Notes under the pieces: generated by a model
Database searches by the model: none
What the model saw: only the letters and a program-made list of their open reading frames with translations
Told to the model about the DNA's origin: nothing
Translations under genes and position numbers: made by a program
Assembly: GCA_011364985.1 (NCBI GenBank)
Contig: RDOC01000001.1
Coordinates: 347,124-411,123, forward strand
Direction: 5' to 3'
DNA from: Candidatus Thorarchaeota archaeon
GTDB lineage: Archaea; Asgardarchaeota; Thorarchaeia; Thorarchaeales; Thorarchaeaceae
DNA length: 64,000 nt
Part shown: piece after piece, positions 3,646 through 54,403 of the stretch
Layout of the letters: every line of letters begins with the position of its first letter
Position numbering within the stretch: position 1 is the stretch's first letter

Positions 3646-3717
3646 GGTGAACACTCAATGCCGCAAGTATGGCTTGATCCACACAGCCATAAGGGAGGAT
3701 TCTATTGAGTGTTCACC
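3646..3717. repeat. perfect 14-bp inverted repeat forming a long hairpin with a nested 6-bp helix
   Basis: GGTGAACACTCAAT (3646..3659) pairs with ATTGAGTGTTCACC (3704..3717). Inner arms are ATGGCT (3669..3674) and AGCCAT (3685..3690). It sits 31 nt after the stop of the 3040..3615 ORF. Confidence 0.7.
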
Positions 3718-3918
3718 CACATGTTTTCTTCAGTCTGACAAAGGGTTCGGCTGAATCCATGTCGGAGAATAAACACGATCTATTCATAGATGCTTAGACT
3801 TATATACGAAAACAATAGCGCCTCCTGACACTCCCTAATTGGGGGCCGGTTTTAACCATTGATTGGTAGCCACCATATTCTCGGCCACATCCCAACGGGA
3901 AAAGACAAGGTGAAACCT

Positions 3919-4863
3919 ATGGCAAAGCCAGTTCGCTCAATGAACGAAAGGCAGAGAGGCATGAAAGTCTGTTCTATTTGTGGCGCCGATAAATTCTACG
4001 AAGATTTGTCCCGTGGTGAGAGTATTTGCACATCGTGTGGATGTGTGATTACTGAGAGGATTATTGATAATGGCCCAGAATGGCGCGCCTTTACTTCTGA
4101 AGAAAGAGATGCCAGAGCTCGAACCGGTTCTCCTGCAACCCTTACTATGGCTGACAAGGGACTCGCAACAACCATTGGCTGGAGCGACAGAGATGCAAAT
4201 GGTCGAGCAATTGCCGCAAGCTCACGTGCAGCTATTTACAGGATGCGTAAATGGCAGATTCGAACTCTAGTCCATAGTTCGCAGCATCGAAACCTCAGTA
4301 TTGCCATGAGCGAGATGGACCGCCTTACTTCACAATTGGGAGTCCCCCATGAAACAAAGGAGACCTCAGCCCTCATCTACAGAAAGGCCCTTTCAAAGAG
4401 GCTTGTCAGAGGACGAAGCATTGAGGGCATGGTTGCGGCTACTATATACTTGTCATGCAGAATTCATAAGATTCCAAGGCAGCTGGATGAAATTGTGACC
4501 GAGGCGAGAGTCAACAGAAAGGAGCTTGGTCAGTGTGTCAGACTGATTCTTCGGAACGTTGATGTTAAAGTTCCAATTCCATCTGCAAATGACCTAATGC
4601 CGAGGATATCCGCAGATCTTGGACTTGATGGCAAAACTGTACAGACAGCTATGGGAATCATAAATGATGCCAGAGAAAGAGGCATTACTGCCGGGAAAGA
4701 CCCTGGTGGACTTGCAGCTGCTGCCCTCTATATTGCAGGCATTATTACCAATGACCGTCGTACTCAGAGGGAAATTGCCGAGGCATCAAACGTAACAGAG
4801 GTCACTGTGAGAAATAGATACAAGGACCTCGCAAGTAGCCTTCAAATCACAATCAAGCCGTAG
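3919..4863 (+). CDS. tfb: transcription initiation factor TFB (TFIIB homolog), paralog 1
   Basis: N-terminal zinc ribbon CSICG...CTSCGCV, then IDNGPEWRAF and two cyclin-like repeats ending VTEVTVRNRYKDL. ATG 3919 is preceded by GGTGA. The track ORF begins at an upstream TTG (3859). Confidence 0.9.
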   Translation: MAKPVRSMNERQRGMKVCSICGADKFYEDLSRGESICTSCGCVITERIIDNGPEWRAFTSEERDARARTGSPATLTMADKGLATTIGWSDRDANGRAIAASSRAAIYRMRKWQIRTLVHSSQHRNLSIAMSEMDRLTSQLGVPHETKETSALIYRKALSKRLVRGRSIEGMVAATIYLSCRIHKIPRQLDEIVTEARVNRKELGQCVRLILRNVDVKVPIPSANDLMPRISADLGLDGKTVQTAMGIINDARERGITAGKDPGGLAAAALYIAGIITNDRRTQREIAEASNVTEVTVRNRYKDLASSLQITIKP

Positions 4864-4893: not shown

Positions 4894-5706
4894 ATGGCAA
4901 TACCAGATTCTTTTTCAGAGTTATACACCTTCGGAAGAACAATGAATCAGTTCATCGTGGCACTTTGCGGTATCCCAGCATCAGGGAAGACAATCCTAGC
5001 TAGAGTGATTCAGGAATTGCTTTCTGTTGAGACGGACGTAGTAATTGTCGATACTGACACCTGCAGAGATGAGGCGTATTGCTCTAATTTCACTCCTGAA
5101 TTAGAGAAGAAGGTAAGAAAGGAAGCCTTGAGAAGAACGGAGGAGATTGTTAAAAGCGGTCGTTCGGTCATTCATGATGATACCAATTACTATACGAGTA
5201 TGCGACACGAGCTCTATGAGATTGCGGTTAGGCATGGATGTGCATTTGGGGTAGTCTTTGTATCCACGCCACTGGAGAAATCATTGGAGTGGAATAGTCT
5301 GCGAAAAAAACCAATTCCAGAAGATGTTGTGAAACGCATCAAAGAGCGCATGAATACTCCTGGTACAAAATACACATGGGACAGCCCTGTAGCTATTGTA
5401 AACCTAAGCAGAGAGAAGACCATAGACGCAGCGAAGAATGTTGTTGAGTCGATTCGTGATCTTTCTCTGCCAAACATTGAAGGATCGCCAACTGCTGAGT
5501 CGAATGCTTACAACCAGATAGACTCTGTAACAAGAAGAGTAGTATCAGAATTCCTGCAGGAGTACCCATCCTACAGGTCTGACCCCAGAGTATCACGTCT
5601 CAGAAGAGAACTCCTTGTTGAGGCCAGAACTCTTCAATTGGAGGTTCGTGAAGTTGAACGGATGTTACGAGTACGTCTTGGAATTCTTGCGGACAGGACG
5701 TCTTAG
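4894..5706 (+). CDS. pstK: O-phosphoseryl-tRNA(Sec) kinase (PSTK)
   Basis: P-loop GIPASGKT, DDTNYYTSMRHELY, IPEDVVKRIKERMNTPGTKYTWDSP. This closely matches my recollection of the M. jannaschii PSTK pattern. It is convergent with tRNA-Sec, 5 nt away. Confidence 0.85.
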   Translation: MAIPDSFSELYTFGRTMNQFIVALCGIPASGKTILARVIQELLSVETDVVIVDTDTCRDEAYCSNFTPELEKKVRKEALRRTEEIVKSGRSVIHDDTNYYTSMRHELYEIAVRHGCAFGVVFVSTPLEKSLEWNSLRKKPIPEDVVKRIKERMNTPGTKYTWDSPVAIVNLSREKTIDAAKNVVESIRDLSLPNIEGSPTAESNAYNQIDSVTRRVVSEFLQEYPSYRSDPRVSRLRRELLVEARTLQLEVREVERMLRVRLGILADRTS

Positions 5707-5711
5707 AAAGA

Positions 5712-5802
5712 TGGCGGCCTCCTAAGAGAATCGAACTCTCATCGCTTGCACGATCGTGGGTTTGAAGTCCACGGGGCCGGACCACCAGCCCTGTAGGAGG
5801 CC
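5712..5802 (-). tRNA. tRNA-Sec: tRNA-Sec (anticodon UCA), 91 nt with encoded CCA
   Basis: The reverse complement reads GGCCTCCTA-CA-GGGCTGG-TGGT-CCGGCCC-C-GTGGAC-TTCAAAC.. . It has a 9-bp acceptor, 7-bp D stem with 4-nt loop, 6-position anticodon stem and loop CUUCAAA (UCA). The variable arm closes with a GCAA loop, the T stem is 4 bp with loop TTCGATT, and the discriminator is G followed by CCA. Confidence 0.9.
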
Positions 5803-5816
5803 TTGATTCTGGATGA

Positions 5817-5830
5817 AGATATATGAAAAT
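5817..5830 (-). promoter_or_regulatory. TATA-like box upstream of tRNA-Sec
   Basis: The minus strand reads ATTTTCATATATCT about 15-28 nt upstream of the tRNA 5' end. Confidence 0.4.
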
Positions 5831-5854
5831 AAGCTTGAGGGTCTGAATGATGAA

Positions 5855-6505
5855 CTACAGATACCGCGCGATGACTTCGTGCGTTTCCTTCTTCCATTCA
5901 ATGGTCTTCTTTGCTAACTCAGCAGCGATATTTGCGGGAGGAGATTCATCTCTGGGTAGAGATTCTATTTCTGACAACCAACCTGATGTCGATAGCGTCA
6001 GTGAATGCAAGTCCTCACCCTGTGTTGCCTTAATCATCATTTCCCTACCGTGTGCAAGCTGAATATATACATCATTCAGTGGAGCCTTATTGAGAATTTC
6101 AAAAATGAGCCGGTCCCAGCAGGTCTTTGCAACAAGTGCACGACGAAGCTTGGCTCGTTCGTCATCTGAGATGGTAGCGAATTTCTCCAAGTGTGCATTG
6201 AGAGCGGACTCAATCGTTTCGAGGTATTCGTGAATTGCTTTCCCATTTTTGCCCCAGACAGTAATCTCCACTGACCGCTGGGCCTCTTCAACCCAAATTC
6301 TAACATCATATTTCTGGGAATCAGCATCAACAGAAAACATGGCTTTGCCTTTGAAGATCTGGCTCTCAGCCTCACTGTACTCAGTCAGAAGGACTCCTGG
6401 CTTGGATGCCACTGTATACCAAGCTAGGCGGAACACCACAGCTGAATCGGCTATCTGGTAGCTTGAAGTACGACTGACCTCCGTCTTGTCACCGACTTCC
6501 TCCAA
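5855..6505 (-). CDS. uncharacterised protein embedded in the Sec operon (orf216)
   Basis: 216-aa ORF. Its TTG start lies 14 nt after the SepSecS stop and is preceded by GGGAGGT. It is co-directional with selB-sepSecS and is followed by tRNA-Sec. No recognisable domain. Confidence 0.6.
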   Translation of the reverse strand: MEEVGDKTEVSRTSSYQIADSAVVFRLAWYTVASKPGVLLTEYSEAESQIFKGKAMFSVDADSQKYDVRIWVEEAQRSVEITVWGKNGKAIHEYLETIESALNAHLEKFATISDDERAKLRRALVAKTCWDRLIFEILNKAPLNDVYIQLAHGREMMIKATQGEDLHSLTLSTSGWLSEIESLPRDESPPANIAAELAKKTIEWKKETHEVIARYL

Positions 6506-6519
6506 TGGCTGACCTCCCT

Positions 6520-7845
6520 TCAGGCTTCCGAGAGTAAACCTTTGACTTCCTTATAGAGTTTCGTAGTAGCTTTCTCAACATCACTTTTGGTAGCCCCAAT
6601 TGCCGAATTCATCACGATATAGCTGTGTGGATAGTCATCGATGCAGGATCCGTAAGCGCCCATTTCAACTGCTCTTGGACCAGTGACTCGCATGTTGTAG
6701 AGTCTTCCACCAATTTCGCGGACATCCAGACCATCCATTGTCATTGCCAAAGCGACAGGGTTTTCTACTGAAAGAACTCTTTGGCTCACTTCTTCTGCGA
6801 TTTCGTCTAGTCTGCATTCAAGGTATTTCTTATTTGCCTTCTGTTCCTCTTGTAACGCTTTGTATCTTGAGAAACCCAAGGACAATAACGATGCTAAGGT
6901 TTGAACAACTGGGGCAGCTGTTGCACGTCCAGCATAGGTTTCTGAAATGGCTTCGATAGACTCTTGGTGTGGAGATACAACGATTGACGCACCAACGGGA
7001 GTAAGGAAATTCTTATCACTGCTCTGGACAATGGCATCAACCCTTCCGGCGTCAATAGCAGAGCTTATGGCTTTCATTACTTCGTTGGACTGGACACCGT
7101 ATGCGTTATTGATTACAAACGGAATACTTGCATCCTGACAGAGTCTTGCTATTTCCTTAACAGGATCTGATTCACGTGGAGGGAAGAACGTGGTTGTTGC
7201 AAGGATAGCGACTGCTTTATTGTCTTTGATTGCCTTGGTAAGTGCGGACAAGTCAGCACAAACTGCCTCGCCCTCCAAGATTGTTGGTATTTCCATTTCC
7301 TTCAGTCCAGCCATTGCGATTCCGCGTTTAGGCGATTCATGATCAACACGCGGATAAAGGACGGTTCTTATGCCCTGTGTTCTTCGAAGCGCAGCCAGAG
7401 TCAGCGCAATTGACATGCCAGTTGAAAGAGGGGAGATGAAGCCACCTTTCACACTACCAAGGCCGAGCTTTCGAATTGCATCCAGGGCAACGCTGCTGGC
7501 TACCTGCTGCATCAGAGAGGCGCCAGGTGCCTTTGGCTGCGCTGCAGTTACATGCCCGCTCCGACCTATGCCATGGTTGAAACCACTAGATAGCATCCCG
7601 ACAAAAGGTGAAGCAATCCTGGCCTCGCGTTCACCCACGCGAGCGGCTTCAGGGTCCTTGTCTGTATCCATGGATGACAGAAGCTTCAGCAAGATATCTA
7701 ATTGCTCATCTGAAAGAGAATCATCTGGAAAGACTCGACGATTCAAGACGTCTCTTATTGGTGCTAAAAATGCATCAAGGGTGATTTCACCGCGTGCTGC
7801 GATACTCGGTGGCAGAACTGCTTTCAAGCGTTCATCAGCACCCAA
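6520..7845 (-). CDS. spcS: O-phosphoseryl-tRNA(Sec) selenium transferase (SepSecS)
   Basis: 441 aa with GEREARIASPFV, HGIGRSGHVTAAQPKAPGAS and the PLP-lysine context VQSSDKNFLTPVG. TTG start with a GGAGG Shine-Dalgarno-like ribosome-binding motif (SD) upstream. Overlaps the selB 3' end by 11 nt. Confidence 0.9.
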   Translation of the reverse strand: MGADERLKAVLPPSIAARGEITLDAFLAPIRDVLNRRVFPDDSLSDEQLDILLKLLSSMDTDKDPEAARVGEREARIASPFVGMLSSGFNHGIGRSGHVTAAQPKAPGASLMQQVASSVALDAIRKLGLGSVKGGFISPLSTGMSIALTLAALRRTQGIRTVLYPRVDHESPKRGIAMAGLKEMEIPTILEGEAVCADLSALTKAIKDNKAVAILATTTFFPPRESDPVKEIARLCQDASIPFVINNAYGVQSNEVMKAISSAIDAGRVDAIVQSSDKNFLTPVGASIVVSPHQESIEAISETYAGRATAAPVVQTLASLLSLGFSRYKALQEEQKANKKYLECRLDEIAEEVSQRVLSVENPVALAMTMDGLDVREIGGRLYNMRVTGPRAVEMGAYGSCIDDYPHSYIVMNSAIGATKSDVEKATTKLYKEVKGLLSEA

Positions 7846-9229
7846 AAGTCACATCCTCCGTCACAAATCTCTCATAAATCACTTCATCTTCTTCAGAAAC
7901 TGGCTCTCGAAACTCGATGCTTACAACACCTCTTGTGCCAAATGGGCTTCTAATAACTCCCTTGACACCTTTGGTTGTATATACTTCAGTACCAATAAGG
8001 GCTTCCGCAACTCTCTTGCTGGACGCCAAGCCTTGGACAAGTGCATCATCCTCTCGAAGACGGGTAACTGTGCCCAACCGTTTCCTCCTTTTGTGTAAAA
8101 CAATGGTATCAGAAATATCGGTTACTGTTCCAGCACCAATAATCCTCATCTTGGAAGGAGGAAGGTCTGTTCTTGTCAACAGGATCCTCATTCCCTTTTC
8201 CACTGCAAGAGGCTTATGCAGAAGAACAGTCAATTCAAGTTGCTTGTCGTCCACCTCATCTAGAACTACACGCTTGTTGTTAATTGATTCAAAAGGTACA
8301 ATCTCAGCTGTCACTGTGGCCATGGCGACGGTTGCGCTTACGATCATTCTATTTGTGATTCTTTCTCTATAGAGTGGATTCCTATCCAATCTTGCGACCA
8401 TAATCGAAATACGTGAGAGACTTCCTGGAAGGCAGAGATAGTCGCCTCTGCTAATGCTGTCATGGCTGAGTTCTGGTACGTTTATTCCCACTCTCTCTCC
8501 TGCACAGGCTCCTACCTTGGCTTCACCAAATGTCTGAAGGGAGCGAACCTTCCCAATTGCACCTTGGGGCATTATTTGTACCTTGTCACCGGTCGCAATT
8601 ACACCTCGCTGAATCGTTCCAGTTACAACAGTTCCATGCCCCTTTATTGGAAACACATGGTCTATAGGCATGAGAAAAGAGCTGCCAGTATCACGTTTCC
8701 TTGGTTCAATAACGTTCCGGAGCGCCTCCTTCAGCTGTTCGATTCCCGCCCCAGTCTTCGTTGAAACCTGCGTATATTCGACTCTGCGAAAGCCGGCGCC
8801 TTGCGTTATTTGTTCAATCTGATGTTTAATGGCGGACAATCTCTCAGGTCTTACTAGATCCGATTTAGTAATAACCACAACCATTGAATCAATACCCATT
8901 GACCTAAGAATCACAATGTGCTCTCCTGTCTGTATTTTTGGACCTTCATCTGCTGCTACAACCAAAATCGCCAAATCAATGATAGATGCACCTGCGACAA
9001 CGCTTCGGATTAGGTCGGCATGCCCTGGTGCATCCACCAGTGTTACAATATAATCATTAAGAGTGAACATTGTGAATCCGAGATCGATTGTGATTCCGCG
9101 TTCTTGTGCCTGTGGATGCCTGTCTAATCCAGCTGTGGATACCTTTTCGCTAAGTGCTTTGGCTAAAGCAGTCTTTCCATGGTCTATATGTCCAACAAGG
9201 CCAATATGGACAGGAACTAGGTCCTTCAT
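7835..9229 (-). CDS. selB: selenocysteine-specific elongation factor (archaeal SelB)
   Basis: 464 aa with GTPase motifs GHIDHGKT, DAPGH and TKSD, followed by beta-barrel domains. The size and operon context with SepSecS and tRNA-Sec fit aSelB rather than aEF1A or aIF2-gamma. Confidence 0.85.
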   Translation of the reverse strand: MKDLVPVHIGLVGHIDHGKTALAKALSEKVSTAGLDRHPQAQERGITIDLGFTMFTLNDYIVTLVDAPGHADLIRSVVAGASIIDLAILVVAADEGPKIQTGEHIVILRSMGIDSMVVVITKSDLVRPERLSAIKHQIEQITQGAGFRRVEYTQVSTKTGAGIEQLKEALRNVIEPRKRDTGSSFLMPIDHVFPIKGHGTVVTGTIQRGVIATGDKVQIMPQGAIGKVRSLQTFGEAKVGACAGERVGINVPELSHDSISRGDYLCLPGSLSRISIMVARLDRNPLYRERITNRMIVSATVAMATVTAEIVPFESINNKRVVLDEVDDKQLELTVLLHKPLAVEKGMRILLTRTDLPPSKMRIIGAGTVTDISDTIVLHKRRKRLGTVTRLREDDALVQGLASSKRVAEALIGTEVYTTKGVKGVIRSPFGTRGVVSIEFREPVSEEDEVIYERFVTEDVTFGC

Positions 9230-9377
9230 GATGTAGCGCCTTTCATCTCAGCTGTACACTCGCATAAAACCTTGGCTAAATACGAGATTTTTGACAGTGA
9301 GGAGAGAACAGGGCGGGAAAGAGAAATCGGTGTAATGAAGCGGGCGGTTTATTGGGAGGCTTGCTGAACACAGACCC

Positions 9378-9785
9378 ATGGTCTCCAGATCTCTAGAAAA
9401 GATGGTGTTGATGGCTTTAGGACTGACAACGGTTGTCATAATTGGTGTTCCGGCCTTGATGTTCGCAGTCAACACTCTTGGAAATATCACAGACCTTGAA
9501 AGGGCTGAGGCTTTTGCAACTGGACTGATAAACGAAACACGGCTCGTCGACATTGGGACTACAAATAAGACTGAACTCGCAGTTCTCATTCCGGAGTACG
9601 TAACAATATCCGCTAGTGAAAGCACTTTGACTATCACATTCACAAAAGAAGGAATTCCAGAAACTCAATGGAAAGACACATTCCTACACCCTGTAAGCCT
9701 TCTTGGAAGTACTTCTGCTGGGCAGTATTCCATGACTATCAGTTTGGTTGCAGGCACAATTGAAATCGTATTTGCTTCCCTTTGA
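9378..9785 (+). CDS. hypothetical membrane-anchored protein
   Basis: An N-terminal hydrophobic helix (MVLMALGLTTVVIIGVPALMFAV) is followed by a beta-rich soluble part. The N-terminus is pilin/archaellin-like, which is only suggestive. Confidence 0.45.
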   Translation: MVSRSLEKMVLMALGLTTVVIIGVPALMFAVNTLGNITDLERAEAFATGLINETRLVDIGTTNKTELAVLIPEYVTISASESTLTITFTKEGIPETQWKDTFLHPVSLLGSTSAGQYSMTISLVAGTIEIVFASL

Positions 9786-10957
9786 GGCTGGTCCTGTCCA
9801 TACTAACAGCAAAGGGACGAGAACCATTCAACACAATGTTTTTAATGCTGGCTCAAGTTCCGCGCCAATATCGCCCTTGCCGAGGACAAAATGCCATGGC
9901 CGAAGACAACGAAATGGCAGAGAAGCTAGATGTTGAAAAAGAGGATGCGAAAGAGGAAGAAACATCCTCCTCTGAAGATCTTTCGAAGAAAGAAACAAAG
10001 GAACCTTCTAGCAGATTCAAGATCAAGAACCCTGTTGGTTTCATTTTCAACCTGAGAATGCTACGTAGAGTGGTTCAGATTCTCTTCCTGTTAGGAATAA
10101 ATGTGTACATCTTTGCAGCATGGGCAGAAGGCGAGCAGATCATTGCCTTTTGGCAGGCATTTCGTGATATACTTCCAACGCTTCCGATTATAGCCCCGCT
10201 TGAGGGCTCTTTTGCCGTTCTAGCGGGCTCTTTTGACACACTTCAGCGAGAGTTCACCTCTGGAGTGTTCCCATTCTTTACCATCGGTGCCATGATTATT
10301 ATCCTTGCTGTTGTTGGTCGAACGAGTTGTGGATGGATTTGTCCAATAGGAACAATTCAGGATTTCGCAACTCTGCCCAAAAGACAAAAAGCACAAGTCG
10401 GACCAGACAGCGAGAAAGACGCTCGGAAATTCAAGGTTTACGTCTTTGTGCTTACGATGTTCTTTGCTCTTTGGGTCGGGTACAGCCGAGCGTTGGATAC
10501 CTCAGATACGCTTGTAGAAATACTCGGACCTTTTGCTGATGCAGCCTTCGATCCATTTAATCCGGCATACATCATATTTGTTGTATTGCCTGATCAAGCA
10601 TGGCCAACAGATATCAATACCCTCTGGTATTTCACGCAGTGGGGGTGGGCTCTTGCTCAGCTAGTCCTTGTTGCGCTTATTGTTGTTATTGCAGTTTGGT
10701 ACCCCCGTTGGTTTTGTAGATGGATATGCCCAGCTGGATGGTTATATAGCGTATTTTCGCGCGATGCGCTGATTGGAATAGGCAGAAATCCAGCAAGATG
10801 CACGCCAGATGTGTGCAATGTATGTGAAGTGGTGTGTCCAATGAATATTCGAATCAGAAGATATCCATACCAGCATATGTACTCTCCAGATTGCATCATG
10901 TGTCTTGAGTGCAAAAGCCATTGTCCAAACAAGGCCATTGAGATAAGGTTCTCGTAA
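9782..10957 (+). CDS. membrane-bound polyferredoxin (NapH/MauN-like 4Fe-4S protein)
   Basis: Multiple TM segments carry CGWICPIG and CRWICPAG motifs. The C-terminus has CNVCEVVCP and CIMCLECKSHCP ferredoxin motifs. The start is uncertain: TTG at 9782 or ATG at 9896. Confidence 0.7.
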   Translation: MRLVLSILTAKGREPFNTMFLMLAQVPRQYRPCRGQNAMAEDNEMAEKLDVEKEDAKEEETSSSEDLSKKETKEPSSRFKIKNPVGFIFNLRMLRRVVQILFLLGINVYIFAAWAEGEQIIAFWQAFRDILPTLPIIAPLEGSFAVLAGSFDTLQREFTSGVFPFFTIGAMIIILAVVGRTSCGWICPIGTIQDFATLPKRQKAQVGPDSEKDARKFKVYVFVLTMFFALWVGYSRALDTSDTLVEILGPFADAAFDPFNPAYIIFVVLPDQAWPTDINTLWYFTQWGWALAQLVLVALIVVIAVWYPRWFCRWICPAGWLYSVFSRDALIGIGRNPARCTPDVCNVCEVVCPMNIRIRRYPYQHMYSPDCIMCLECKSHCPNKAIEIRFS

Positions 10958-10970
10958 GATCCAAAAGGCC

Positions 10971-11312
10971 TCAGACTTCGCTGGCACGGTCAAATCCACC
11001 TTGCACCTTCGCGAACATCTGCATTAGTTTAAGTCCAAAATCCGTGACTTTCGCGCCCCCTCCGCCTGAAGGTCCGCCCTTGAAGGTTACAAGAATCTTG
11101 ACACCGAGGGTTGCCTCGATCTTGCGAATTACCCCCCATGCGTACCGATAGGACATTCCAGTCGATTCGGTGACTCCTGTAAGAGTACCCTTCTTGAGAA
11201 CATGATTCATAATGGCATATGCACCAGGTCCAAATACATATTTCCCATCAAACTCAAGCCAGAGTTTGTAGTTTGGTTTCAATTTGGAGAATGTCACATC
11301 TTCATCGTTCAT
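10971..11312 (-). CDS. ModE N-terminal-domain-like winged-HTH regulator
   Basis: 113 aa with the ModE-type HTH pattern TGMSYRYAWGVIRKIEATLGVKILVTFKGGPSGGGGAKVTDFG. Confidence 0.7.
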   Translation of the reverse strand: MNDEDVTFSKLKPNYKLWLEFDGKYVFGPGAYAIMNHVLKKGTLTGVTESTGMSYRYAWGVIRKIEATLGVKILVTFKGGPSGGGGAKVTDFGLKLMQMFAKVQGGFDRASEV

Positions 11313-11371
11313 TTATGGCAGCTCCAAGGGAGTAATCAAGCTAACGGCTCCAAAAGAAGAAGAAACTCAGA

Positions 11372-11599
11372 TCACGGACCCCATCTCATTCGTTCGCCTT
11401 TTGTATCTTTTTTGTATGCCTTCTTTACTTGTTTCCAGTGGTCGGCGCATAAGTAGGTTTTTCGTGAGCGTGCATCTTTCAGTTTCAACCCAGTTCTCGT
11501 AACACTTTCTGCAATACGTACAGTGGCAAATGACCTCTTTGATTCGTTGTTGCAACCGGCAATGCTGCATATCTTATTTGACGACGACAAATTCCTCAC
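11372..11599 (-). CDS. small C2CH zinc-finger protein
   Basis: 75 aa with a GTG start. Cys/His spacing is C-x4-C-x34-C-x2-H (CSIAGC ... CADH), and the C-terminus is basic. Confidence 0.45.
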   Translation of the reverse strand: MRNLSSSNKICSIAGCNNESKRSFATVRIAESVTRTGLKLKDARSRKTYLCADHWKQVKKAYKKDTKGERMRWGP

Positions 11600-11660
11600 T
11601 CATTGTCAGCTCCGAAGAGCATCATTATAACTATGACGGCCAATCACATTGAACTGGATT

Positions 11661-12641
11661 TCATCGTGGAGTAAGGATGGGCCCCTGAGAATAGTCAAAT
11701 ATCATCTTCTCCTCAGAACCAAGACGTAGTTTCAGCTCTTTGGTGTCATTTACCTCTCCTATTTCAGACACGGTGACGCCGTGAGCTTTGGCTATTTCAT
11801 GCACCTGTCCTAGATGTGCTTTCGCGGTCGAAACAAGAAATCCCAGAGATATGAACATTCTAAGCCAGTCCCTCATTGGAACATCATCCGGTCTATCCTT
11901 ATCGACGGCATCCAAGGATATTATACCACCCTTCTCGGAGTACTCAAGAAGCATACCAGCAGTACCAATGATGCCAGCTACCGACACGTCCTTTGCGGCA
12001 CTCAACAACTGGTTTGCTGCTAGATCATTCATTACGGAAAGACGCTCCATGAGCGTTGTGGATTCTCGTCCAGTGACGGAATCCCACCCTAAGTTGTAGC
12101 TTGATCCTCTTTGGCCCGTTTTGTCAAAGAGGAGCACAAGAAGATCGCCAGTCTGTGCGCCTCCTGCAGTCAGCATATTAGTCCTCTGGACAGTCCCTGT
12201 GGCTGATCCAACGACAAAAGTTGATGTCGCTATGGGATTAGTATGGCCTCGTACTATTGGTACCTGAAATGCGTGTGAGCCATCGATGAGCCCTTGAAGT
12301 AGATGTTCTCCGATGTCTTTGTCTGAGTAAGAGAGAGCAACAGCAAATGATGTGGGAACTCCTCCAGCTGCATAGATGTCCATTACATTTGCCAGAACTG
12401 CATTGAAACCAGCTGCTTGAGGATGTTCAAGGCAGAGCTCCTCGACAATGGCATCAGTCGTTAGGAGAATTACTTCGTTGCTCTCAGTCCCAATTGCTGC
12501 GGAGTCTTCGCCCAGTCCATGTGCATGATCTCCATGAAATGACTCAAGGCGAAGGCGCCTAATTATTGAAGGAAGTACATATTTCCTACTTATGCCATCA
12601 AAATCAAGAAGTCTGGCCACGATATCCTCCAGGCGGCTCAA
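11661..12641 (-). CDS. PurM/AIR-synthase superfamily protein, selenophosphate-synthetase-related
   Basis: 326 aa with GEDSAAI, LLTTDAIVEE, ANVMDIYAAGGVP and KDVSVAGIIGTAGMLLE. It lacks the SelD N-terminal Gly-rich Cys/Sec-x-x-Lys loop. TTG start. Confidence 0.7.
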   Translation of the reverse strand: MSRLEDIVARLLDFDGISRKYVLPSIIRRLRLESFHGDHAHGLGEDSAAIGTESNEVILLTTDAIVEELCLEHPQAAGFNAVLANVMDIYAAGGVPTSFAVALSYSDKDIGEHLLQGLIDGSHAFQVPIVRGHTNPIATSTFVVGSATGTVQRTNMLTAGGAQTGDLLVLLFDKTGQRGSSYNLGWDSVTGRESTTLMERLSVMNDLAANQLLSAAKDVSVAGIIGTAGMLLEYSEKGGIISLDAVDKDRPDDVPMRDWLRMFISLGFLVSTAKAHLGQVHEIAKAHGVTVSEIGEVNDTKELKLRLGSEEKMIFDYSQGPILTPR

Positions 12642-23891: not shown

Positions 23892-24860
23892 TCAGACCAA
23901 GGACATTGTATCAATTCCCAGTTTGCGCACAATCTCTTTGTATCTATTTCTCACCGTGACTTCTGTCACGCGAGCTACTTCAGCAATCTCACGCTGAGTC
24001 CTGCGCTCGTCCATCATAATTGAGGCGACATAGATTGCGGCCGCAGCCAAACCAAGAGGGTCTCTTCCTATCGTGAGGCCCATGTCCCTGCTTCTCTCTA
24101 GAATCTCGACTGTTCGTAGTTGAACAGGACTGGAAAGCTCAAGCTGCGATGCGAACCTAGAGATGTAGTCAATAGGATTACTTAGCGGGATTCGTACATT
24201 TAGACTTCTAAGAAGAAGACGATAGCATTGCCCAAGTTTCTTCTTATCAATGCGTGAGGCATCAGCAACTTCATCTAATGGACGTGGTTTCTGGCGGATT
24301 CTGCATGCTGCATAGAGTGTAGCTGCCACCATCGCTTCTATTGACCTGCCTCGAACCAGTTTCTTCTGGATAGACTTGCGATAGAGCAGAGCTGCCAATT
24401 CTCTAATTGGCTGGGGAATACCAAGTTGTGAAGCCAAGCGCTCCAGCTCAGATAGAGCCTGAGCGAGATTACGGTCCATGGAACTATGAACTCTACTTCG
24501 AATCTGCCATTTGCGTAGTCTATAGATTTCTGACCGTCGCGTTGGACTGAGTTTCCTGCCGCTGACATCTCGATCCCGCCAATCGATTACTGTTGATAGA
24601 CCTTTATCATGCACAGTATATCTCATTGGCGCACCGACTCTGCTTCGAGAATCAGCCTCTTCAGAACTAAAGGCTCGCCATTCGGCGCCTGTATCAATCC
24701 TATGGTCAGAGAGAACAAGACCGCACCCCCCGCACACACGCTCTCCACGAGTTAGATCTTCGACGACTGATGAAGACCCGCACTCGGGACAGGATTTCAC
24801 ATCAGACTCGGGCTTGTGAAGACTGCTCCTTTCTGGAGCATCGCCACGTACAGGTTCCAA
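23892..24860 (-). CDS. tfb: transcription initiation factor TFB, paralog 2
   Basis: CPECGSS...CGGCGLV zinc ribbon, IDTGAEWRAF, two cyclin repeats, VTEVTVRNRYKEI. TTG start preceded by GGAGGAG. Confidence 0.9.
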   Translation of the reverse strand: MEPVRGDAPERSSLHKPESDVKSCPECGSSSVVEDLTRGERVCGGCGLVLSDHRIDTGAEWRAFSSEEADSRSRVGAPMRYTVHDKGLSTVIDWRDRDVSGRKLSPTRRSEIYRLRKWQIRSRVHSSMDRNLAQALSELERLASQLGIPQPIRELAALLYRKSIQKKLVRGRSIEAMVAATLYAACRIRQKPRPLDEVADASRIDKKKLGQCYRLLLRSLNVRIPLSNPIDYISRFASQLELSSPVQLRTVEILERSRDMGLTIGRDPLGLAAAAIYVASIMMDERRTQREIAEVARVTEVTVRNRYKEIVRKLGIDTMSLV

Positions 24861-54056: not shown

Positions 54057-54403
54057 GGCTCTGGAGCGGAAGCGCGACTGACGGTACTTGCCTAAGGACA
54101 AGGGCTGAGGAAGCTCCCAACTACTAGCCGATACTGGTCCTGTGAAAGCAGGGAGGCGAGAGCCTCGCTCTGGGAACAGAAACGATACCTCCAAGGCAGA
54201 TATGACAATGATGCGATCTTCAGAATCGCGGAGGACTGTATTGGATGGGATGAAACGGCCTATCACCAGGTAGCAATCTCAAGAATACACCGTTTACGAA
54301 TCGGCCGGAGGTGTAGGGTAGAGAGCATAGACTGATGTCGCAAGGTTCAGATTGGTAACGATCTGAATAGAACAAAATTGGGGCTATTCATCGCACCAGA
54401 GCC
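54057..54403 (+). ncRNA. rnpB: RNase P RNA (archaeal type A-like)
   Basis: The ~400-nt region has no credible ORF. The terminal P1 helix pairs GGCTCTGGAGCG (54057..) with CGCACCAGAGCC (..54403). The P4 5' strand is GAGGAAGCTCCCAA and the 3' strand is ATAGAACAAAATTGGGGCTAT (compare the consensus ACAGAACCCGGCTTA). An AACAGAAACGATACC element is CR-II-like. Confidence 0.75.

Follow-up and report, generated by a model that had tools for sequence, protein, structure and literature searches.

orf216 of a Thorarchaeota selenocysteine gene cluster belongs to an Asgard-only protein family that is also retained at loci without selenocysteine genes

In a stretch of 64,000 nucleotides from a Candidatus Thorarchaeota archaeon (contig RDOC01000001.1, positions 347,124 to 411,123; hereafter the window, numbered from its first letter), the open reading frame (ORF) orf216 lies between the gene for the selenium transferase SepSecS and the gene for the selenocysteine tRNA (tRNA-Sec). 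How a selenocysteine insertion sequence (SECIS) in the 3′ untranslated region (3′-UTR) tells archaeal ribosomes to read UGA as selenocysteine (Sec) is unsolved, and an Asgard-only protein embedded in a Sec operon is an obvious candidate for a SECIS factor, flagged by NCBIfam and by Huang et al. 2024 (ISME J, PMC11227280). The original prediction, made from the letters of the window, had taken orf216 for an uncharacterised orphan and proposed it, by association, as a SECIS-binding or adaptor protein, a tRNA-Sec-handling protein or a selenium-delivery protein. The name orfX is used below for the gene and its homologs. The following features surround it in the window:

3859..4863, plus strand: TFB, a TFIIB homolog (Pfam TFIIB and Zn_Ribbon_TF), conserved flank of the cluster
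4894..5706, plus strand: PSTK-like kinase of the KTI12 family (PF08433 KTI12, E 3e-34), convergent on tRNA-Sec
5712..5802, minus strand: tRNA-Sec, anticodon TCA (ARAGORN; Rfam RF01852, 58.3 bits, gathering score 47)
5803..5854, minus strand: spacer between orf216 and tRNA-Sec, with the TATA-like AAGCTTATTTTCATATAT at 5819-5836
5855..6505, minus strand: orf216 (orfX), 216 aa, TTG start
6506..6519, minus strand: spacer of 14 nt from the sepSecS stop to the orf216 TTG
6512-6518, minus strand: Shine-Dalgarno (SD) motif GGGAGGT, 6 nt ahead of the orf216 start
6520..7845, minus strand: sepSecS, O-phosphoseryl-tRNA(Sec) selenium transferase (PF05889, E 7.8e-113; TIGR03531, 448.7 bits, cut-off 224.85)
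7835..9229, minus strand: selB / aEFSec (GTP_EFTU, aSelB_III; TIGR00475, 275 bits, cut-off 242)
9230..9377, no strand assigned: intergenic region from which, by the ORF layout, selB and orf135 diverge; presumed to hold the promoter of the selB-sepSecS-orf216 unit
9378..9785, plus strand: orf135, conserved divergent neighbour with no family match

The unit begins with selB, which overlaps sepSecS by 11 nt; the TGA stop of sepSecS is followed by AGGGAGGTCAGCCA and then by the TTG start of orf216. The predicted arrangement was confirmed in the sequence: orf216, selB and sepSecS are co-directional on the minus strand, orf216 starts 14 nt past the sepSecS stop behind its GGGAGGT motif, and tRNA-Sec, found with ARAGORN and Rfam RF01852, begins 52 nt past the orf216 stop. 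Because of the 14-nt gap, the co-transcription of orf216 with selB and sepSecS that had been proposed is well supported, with orf216 as the third cistron of the unit and with an SD of its own. orf216 is certainly a genuine gene and no chance reading frame, because it has hundreds of homologs, is under purifying selection (pairwise ratios of nonsynonymous to synonymous substitutions, dN/dS, of 0.05-0.24), yields a confident fold and belongs to a family in which a GGAGG-type SD, mostly 8-11 nt before the start, is present at 56 of 76 homologous loci. The PSTK-like kinase has TIGR03574 (selen_PSTK) as its best NCBIfam match, with 138 bits under a cut-off of 290, and its position is kept across Thorarchaeota loci.

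The proposed co-transcription is less certain for the tRNA. The TATA-like AAGCTTATTTTCATATAT stands at -34 to -17 relative to tRNA-Sec in the window, and a related AAGCTTAAGT motif occurs near the same position in many Thorarchaeota loci, for which reason tRNA-Sec probably has its own promoter in the window. At loci L009, L011 and L074/75 (loci of the comparative sample carry L numbers) tRNA-Sec starts only 11-15 nt past the orfX stop, and the tRNA would therefore be processed there from the selB-sepSecS-orfX transcript or be transcribed from a promoter inside orfX.

orf216 is not an uncharacterised orphan. It matches the curated family NF045535.1 of NCBIfam ("Sel_Asgard, putative selenocysteine system protein"; model length 195) with 236.1 bits and an E-value of 2.9e-70 at a cut-off of 132 and over the full model (residues 20-212 aligned to positions 4-194), and judged by its sequence it is a plain member of this family with no sequence-level difference. 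It is 100% identical to NHI82971.1 (EAX81_01520) from a Candidatus Thorarchaeota metagenome-assembled genome. The earlier remark that no domain was recognised holds for Pfam, in which no domain was found at E<=0.1, but not for NCBIfam; sequence and profile searches of Pfam, NCBIfam and PDB for remote homologs gave nothing past NF045535. Across searches 329-463 homologs of orf216 were collected, and HMMER, run exhaustively with a profile against 1.84 billion representatives, returned 29 clusters only. The best 120 homologs listed in a profile search were Thorarchaeota proteins alone; a word-indexed profile search for other lineages gave 17 proteins and a metagenome scan with a Lokiarchaeota sub-alignment 2 loci. 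All named homologs come from Asgard archaea (Thorarchaeota, Lokiarchaeota, Jord/Freyarchaeota, Odinarchaeia and Baldrarchaeia), and orfX was not found in Methanococcales or Methanopyrus by the homolog searches or by the exhaustive profile search.

Huang et al. 2024 reported an Asgard-exclusive hypothetical protein (e.g. MBD3157761.1) that is often encoded near secS, efSec and pstk. This protein and NF045535 share with orf216 the same Asgard-only range and the same secS/efSec/pstk neighbourhood, and they are probably one and the same; the accession MBD3157761.1 did not occur in the clusters that were inspected. The gene with its family and the reasoning by association are thus on record already, in a curated database as well as in the published literature; a 2026 review of the field makes no mention of such a factor. 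The label of NF045535 derives solely from gene neighbourhood. Members are encoded beside Sec genes in the window, in most Thorarchaeota, in Lokiarchaeota, Jordarchaeia and others; in Odinarchaeia, in Baldrarchaeia, in the genome GCA_053940065.1 and at seven Thorarchaeota loci they are not. The protein OdinLCB4_001380 (P0145; L087 10001-10660), which Odinarchaeum yellowstonii LCB_4 encodes on its closed chromosome of 1.42 Mb, scores 143 bits, and because this is above the cut-off of 132, annotation by cut-off would name it a "putative selenocysteine system protein". As the Odin clade is reported to be without Sec, the family name may mislead.

The synteny of orfX was compared in 68 species-level genome loci, nearly all of them from Thorarchaeota, 67 of which have usable upstream sequence. 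At 60 of the 67 informative Thorarchaeota loci sepSecS lies directly upstream of orfX on the same strand, and the distance from the sepSecS stop to the orfX start has a median of 29 nt over 62 measured loci (58 Thorarchaeota loci, the window, L074/L075 and L082). The pair extends well beyond Thorarchaeota. It is found as selB-sepSecS-orfX in the L074/75 lineage, the orfX of which is 40% identical, as PSTK-NTase-NTase-KARI-selB-sepSecS-orfX (NTase, nucleotidyltransferase) in the Jord/Freyarchaeota loci L080/81, as PhoU_div-EndA-...-NTase-selB-sepSecS-orfX in L082, and as sepSecS-orfX in L090, a second Loki-type contig. In the Lokiarchaeota loci L083/84/89 the order is tRNA-Sec-sepSecS-orfX; selB lies there on the opposite strand, at an upstream distance of about 3.5 kb. 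The steadiest partner of orfX is hence sepSecS (and tRNA-Sec), not selB, and the sepSecS-orfX adjacency is ancestral in Asgard archaea. The embedding in a Sec cluster on which the original prediction was built is in this respect deeply conserved; an adjacency kept to this degree is genuine evidence that the two genes are co-expressed, and it would normally be taken to point to a functional connection.

The nucleotidyltransferase genes upstream of selB encode proteins of 350-360 aa with weak similarity to NTP_transf_2 (Pol-beta type), located at 3689-4741 and 4789-5871 in L080 and at 5799-6881 in L082. The gene abuts selB in L082, a KARI gene intervenes in L080, and the second L080 copy and the L082 copy are 47% identical. 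No homolog was found in the 64-kb window. This gene is another possible member of the Sec neighbourhood.

In a mirror-tree analysis of 13 taxa the correlation of orfX was highest with SepSecS (partial r 0.59). With 28 taxa the partial r values were 0.25 for SepSecS, 0.26 for SelB and 0.32 for TFB and therefore unspecific, and the analysis is uninformative as to the readings discussed below.

Further observations come from loci at which orfX stands without Sec genes. Odinarchaeia have four orfX clusters with less than 50% identity to one another, and Baldrarchaeia also carry members; no Sec gene lies within 10 kb on either side of orfX at the Odin and Baldr loci L077-L079, L087 and L088. According to two papers, Sec is used only in Loki/Hel, in Thor, in Sif/Borr and in one further subdivision, here assumed to be Jordarchaeia, while the remaining Asgard clades "appear to lack" it and Asgard archaea have no other selenium pathway; 22.6% of Thorarchaeota genomes are reported to be without the Sec trait. 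Neighbours consisting of PhoU_div, EndA and a Zn-ribbon gene are common to the Odin loci and the Sec-containing locus L082, and in Baldrarchaeia PhoU_div and EndA lie a few kb from orfX. Because these neighbours are shared, an ancestral arrangement from which the Sec genes were lost while orfX was kept is suggested for both lineages.

The genome GCA_053940065.1 has the order orf133 / orfX / TFB / AF_0155 / AstE, which corresponds to the Thorarchaeota neighbours of the window, with no Sec gene at the locus. Seven Thorarchaeota loci (L006, L008, L017, L023, L036, L040 and L063) are without intact Sec genes. In five of them (L006, L008, L023, L040 and L063) orfX adjoins orf135 directly and selB, sepSecS, tRNA-Sec and PSTK are all missing from the locus; orf135 is found beside the unit with or without the Sec genes. 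The gene downstream of orfX is TFB in four of these five, since TFB becomes the direct neighbour once tRNA-Sec and PSTK are deleted, and a 971-aa gene in L063. L017 and L036 retain selB and sepSecS as fragments only, L017 a PSTK fragment as well. The remnants and deletion sites are located as follows:

L017, 7899-8551 and 10099-10389: 102-aa N-terminal stub of selB set against a 117-aa C-terminal stub of sepSecS; PSTK fragment
L036, 9609-9941: Sec remnants
L006/L008, ~9837-10000 and 10652-10735: deletion sites

Ahead of orfX, L006 and L008 still carry the portion of the selB upstream region that lies nearest to orf135, together with the last ~13 codons of sepSecS (...ATTKLYKEV...). Because this sepSecS scar is found on one side, and tRNA-Sec and PSTK are gone from the other, two in-situ deletions have taken everything but orfX. 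On the orfX tree the seven loci occupy six distinct positions and therefore represent at least six independent events of Sec loss.

The constraint on orfX did not change with these losses. Between L006 and L008, both without Sec genes, dN/dS is 0.096, compared with 0.05-0.20 for pairs with Sec genes. Tajima relative-rate tests gave no acceleration in five of the six loss events; the exception is L063, for which p takes values of 0.016-0.066 according to the sister taxon chosen. The SD of orfX is kept at six of the seven loci, and L063 has a marginal match beside the start codon. Purifying selection on orfX is accordingly undiminished after Sec loss, and acceleration of the rate is not consistent. 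The phylogenetic comparison that the original prediction had put forward has therefore two outcomes: the linkage to Sec genes is conserved, but homologs occur in Odinarchaeia, in Baldrarchaeia and at seven Thorarchaeota loci without Sec genes, and what had been named as evidence against the proposal, the presence of homologs where Sec machinery is missing, was in part found.

The structure of orf216 was predicted with AlphaFold2 at a mean predicted local distance difference test score (pLDDT) of 87 and a predicted template modelling score of 0.86, and a beta-rich N-terminal half and a helical C-terminal half, as originally described, are present in the model. The N-domain (residues 8-111) has, in the model, a beta-alpha-beta4-alpha topology, assigned by DSSP to strand 8-15, helix 21-33, strands 38-47, 51-61, 64-73 and 78-85, and helix 88-111; this is the topology of TBP-like folds, a designation of structural class only. 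The C-domain (residues 114-215) is predicted as an up-and-down four-helix bundle and reached a pLDDT of 95 when modelled alone.

Fold searches with this model gave generic matches that were non-significant or marginal. Foldseek with the full model had a best PDB E-value of 0.0096, and its weak matches were to TBP-like folds, namely DcrB/PsbP, the PGM C-terminal domain, KA1, Eag chaperones, RnlA NRD and AlkA; a search of BFVD returned one nameless match at E 5e-4 and weaker named ones, including TBP/TFIID-like. The C-domain matched generic bundles only (Vps28-CTD, the Vps28 C-terminal domain, FliS, cytochrome b562 and designed bundles), and its superposition on Vps28-CTD gave TM-scores of 0.58/0.73, a root-mean-square deviation of 3.0 A and E 0.08. 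TBP-like folds, Vps28-CTD and FliS compare with orfX at E-values all at or above 5e-4 and at 8-18% identity; these are generic folds and imply neither homology nor function.

Five residues are invariant across the family (F25, D131, R154, E155 and K205) and two nearly so (Y147 and W204); all of these residues except F25 fall on three helices of the bundle. Cys129, the single conserved cysteine of the Thorarchaeota proteins, and His152 are invariant within Thorarchaeota and are not conserved in Loki, Jord, Odin and Baldr members. The Thorarchaeota proteins are acidic, with an isoelectric point (pI) of about 5.2 and a net charge of the N-domain of -6 to -11; some family members are basic, with a pI of about 9. 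Searches of Pfam, NCBIfam and PDB found no L7Ae, RRM, KH or other RNA-binding signature, no L7Ae structure was among the Foldseek matches listed for the full model or the C-domain, and the fold is not L7Ae-like, in agreement with the earlier statement that an L7Ae-type motif is missing. A HEPN RNase/RNA-binding domain, raised by the weak matches to RnlA NRD-HEPN and by an R-E-x3-K motif, was considered and rejected: the HEPN motif Rx4-6H is not present, the invariant R154-E155 being followed by K or another residue and not by H, and no HEPN structure was among the listed C-domain matches.

A small zinc-finger protein of the C2CH type is the second conserved neighbour. At six loci without Sec genes (L077, L079 and L087 of Odinarchaeia, L088 of Baldrarchaeia and the further Sec-less loci L085 and L069) a gene for a very basic protein of 70-77 aa lies directly downstream of orfX on the same strand, with a gap of 3-45 nt in five of the six and of ~60 nt in L069. 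The homolog in the window was found by tblastn from the small proteins of Odinarchaeia and Baldrarchaeia (E 1e-8 to 1e-11). The genes are located at:

Window, 11372..11599, minus strand: C2CH zinc-finger protein, 75 aa, pI 10.4, CxxC...CxxH
L087, 10670-10885: C2CH gene
L088, 10684-10917: C2CH gene
L077, 10695-10910: C2CH gene
L079, 10699-10911: C2CH gene
L085, 1921-2154: C2CH gene
L069, 818-1036: C2CH gene

In the window and in most Thorarchaeota loci the homolog occupies a corresponding site on the upstream side of orfX, about 5 kb away, and in Lokiarchaeota it lies within the Sec region, with selB on one side and tRNA-Sec on the other. The C2CH protein matched no family of Pfam or NCBIfam, its similarity to THAP and zf-SAP30 being sub-threshold only. 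That an acidic two-domain protein shares an operon with a zinc-finger protein that is small and basic suggests an interaction of the two.

In the window the C2CH gene is the middle one of a co-directional trio on the minus strand (10971-12641), which has the same order in L074/75. Its two companions are:

10971-11312, minus strand: winged helix-turn-helix protein, 113 aa, with a weak HTH_1 match
11661-12641, minus strand: AIR-synthase-like protein, matched best, though below the cut-off in each case, by the families sll0787 and methanogenesis-marker-2

The AIR-synthase-like gene was considered as SelD and rejected (TIGR00476, 35.6 bits at a cut-off of 125; no N-terminal Sec/Cys loop).

Several further features of the window were recorded. 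orf135 has a hydrophobic N-terminus (MVSRSLEKM.LIA.GL...) and overlaps by 4 nt the gene orf391, with which it forms a conserved unit divergent from selB or, at loci that have lost the Sec genes, directly from orfX. A second TFB paralog is 51% identical to the TFB at 3859-4863, and tRNA-Sec is the sole tRNA that ARAGORN found in the 64-kb window. The coordinates of these features are:

9782-10957, plus strand: orf391, Fer4_5 membrane protein
23913-24824, minus strand: second TFB (TFIIB) paralog
54062-54398, plus strand: archaeal RNase P RNA (RF00373, 156 bits)

The reading that is preferred here, tentatively and at somewhat below an even chance, is that orfX is an acidic adaptor or chaperone, ancestrally co-expressed with SepSecS, that has a Sec-independent core role in which the C2CH protein is probably involved. 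orfX would bind proteins and not RNA or selenium, and its core activity would be independent of selenocysteine, because the gene persisted with its constraint unaltered once all Sec genes were gone. Where Sec is used it may help at the SepSecS/tRNA-Sec step; its most likely direct partner would be the C2CH zinc-finger protein, with which it forms an operon in lineages without Sec. The modelled fold, the conserved residues, the charge and the lack of an RNA-binding signature seem to fit such a protein somewhat better than a SECIS-binding protein. Several points weigh against the adaptor or chaperone reading. The proposed function is deduced from predicted fold, charge and synteny; the Foldseek matches of the model are generic and uninformative for an adaptor function; acidity is not universal in the family, as some members have a pI near 9; and the larger mirror-tree sample is without specific co-evolution with SepSecS. 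An adjacency to sepSecS at the level of whole classes, moreover, would normally predict a specific coupling, which is awkward to reconcile with full retention after Sec loss. Finally, Sec-less status is established at the level of the locus and from the literature, and relocation of the Sec genes to another place in these genomes is formally possible; for the Sec-less Thorarchaeota it is unlikely, because of the deletion scars and the reported share of Thorarchaeota genomes without the Sec trait.

It is quite possible, although we incline to doubt it, that orfX is an Asgard housekeeping or regulatory gene with no Sec function at all, which came to stand behind sepSecS in an ancestor and travels with the operon by inertia and through dependence on its promoter; the C2CH protein could be its partner in this case as well. 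Its retention in Odinarchaeia, Baldrarchaeia and Sec-less Thorarchaeota at the same evolutionary rate argues for this, as do the Sec deletions that fuse orfX with its SD kept to the old upstream region, the slow rearrangement indicated by the PhoU_div, EndA and Zn-ribbon genes shared by the Sec-containing L082 and Sec-less Odinarchaeia (PhoU_div-EndA also by Baldrarchaeia), and the unspecific mirror-tree signal. The sepSecS-orfX pair has, however, outlasted rearrangements that moved selB (Lokiarchaeota), PSTK (Jordarchaeia and Lokiarchaeota) and all outer neighbours; orfX stands beside sepSecS in every Sec-using lineage that was recovered (Thorarchaeota, Lokiarchaeota, Jordarchaeia and two more), and gaps of 12-45 nt imply obligatory co-expression.

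The role of a missing Asgard-type archaeal SECIS-binding adaptor, an analog of SBP2 that joins the 3′-UTR SECIS to aSelB, was among the original proposals and is now judged very improbable. It would agree with the linkage to the Sec cluster, with a family restricted to Asgard archaea, which have eukaryote-like SECIS elements and no SBP2 (PMC11227280), and with the literature, in which no SECIS-binding factor is known for Archaea. Yet no L7Ae, RRM or other RNA-binding or K-turn-binding sign was found by the searches, the fold is of another type, most members are acidic, the linkage follows sepSecS and tRNA-Sec and not selB, and constraint is unchanged in lineages without Sec or SECIS; absence from Methanococcales and Methanopyrus means that orfX is in any case no general archaeal factor. 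Still less probable, to the point of being nearly discounted, is a role in supplying SepSecS, as a carrier of selenium, of selenophosphate or of another small molecule. The place of the gene right after sepSecS and the invariance of Cys129 and His152 within Thorarchaeota would suit a carrier, but in the family at large neither residue is conserved, searches with Pfam, NCBIfam and Foldseek gave no similarity to rhodanese, SelD, NifS or Trx-like proteins, and the family is present in Asgard clades in which no selenium-utilisation pathway has been detected.

The likeness of orfX to SBP2/L7Ae of eukaryotes is confined to the hypothesised role in organisms with kink-turn-type 3′-UTR SECIS elements: SBP2 and L7Ae have the L7Ae/L30e/S12e domain (PF01248), an alpha-beta-alpha sandwich, whereas orfX has neither, shows no sequence or fold similarity to them, is mostly acidic and is kept without Sec. 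A different model is offered by SepCysE, the ~210-aa adaptor of the SepRS-SepCysS 'transsulfursome' of methanogens, which is a protein/tRNA scaffold encoded with a tRNA-dependent pyridoxal phosphate enzyme of the SepSecS/SepCysS type. By analogy, orfX could have a scaffold role of this kind beside SepSecS, but it also persists where SepSecS is absent. Searches of PDB with the orf216 sequence gave only chance matches at E<=10, and SepCysE was not among the top 50 Foldseek matches.

An unlikely but more far-reaching possibility is that a complex of orfX and the C2CH protein couples SepSecS/tRNA-Sec or SECIS mRNAs to translation and has a second, Sec-independent role besides. If this is true, the complex would be an Asgard-specific, non-homologous analog of the eukaryotic SBP2/SECp43 layer, and its second role would explain the survival of orfX after Sec loss.

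What is added here to the published association is a description of the fold, a candidate zinc-finger partner and, for the most part, negative evidence, directed against a dedicated Sec function. The natural "knock-outs" of the Sec system, in Odinarchaeia, in Baldrarchaeia and in at least six deletion events in Thorarchaeota, have left orfX intact and equally constrained. Because the gene is intact in lineages that lost Sec, orfX is probably not the dedicated "missing" selenocysteine factor, and for the same reason the database, in naming it a "putative selenocysteine system protein", probably makes too much of its role; a Sec-related contribution in the Asgard lineages that use selenocysteine is possible, alongside a function that the family performs without it.

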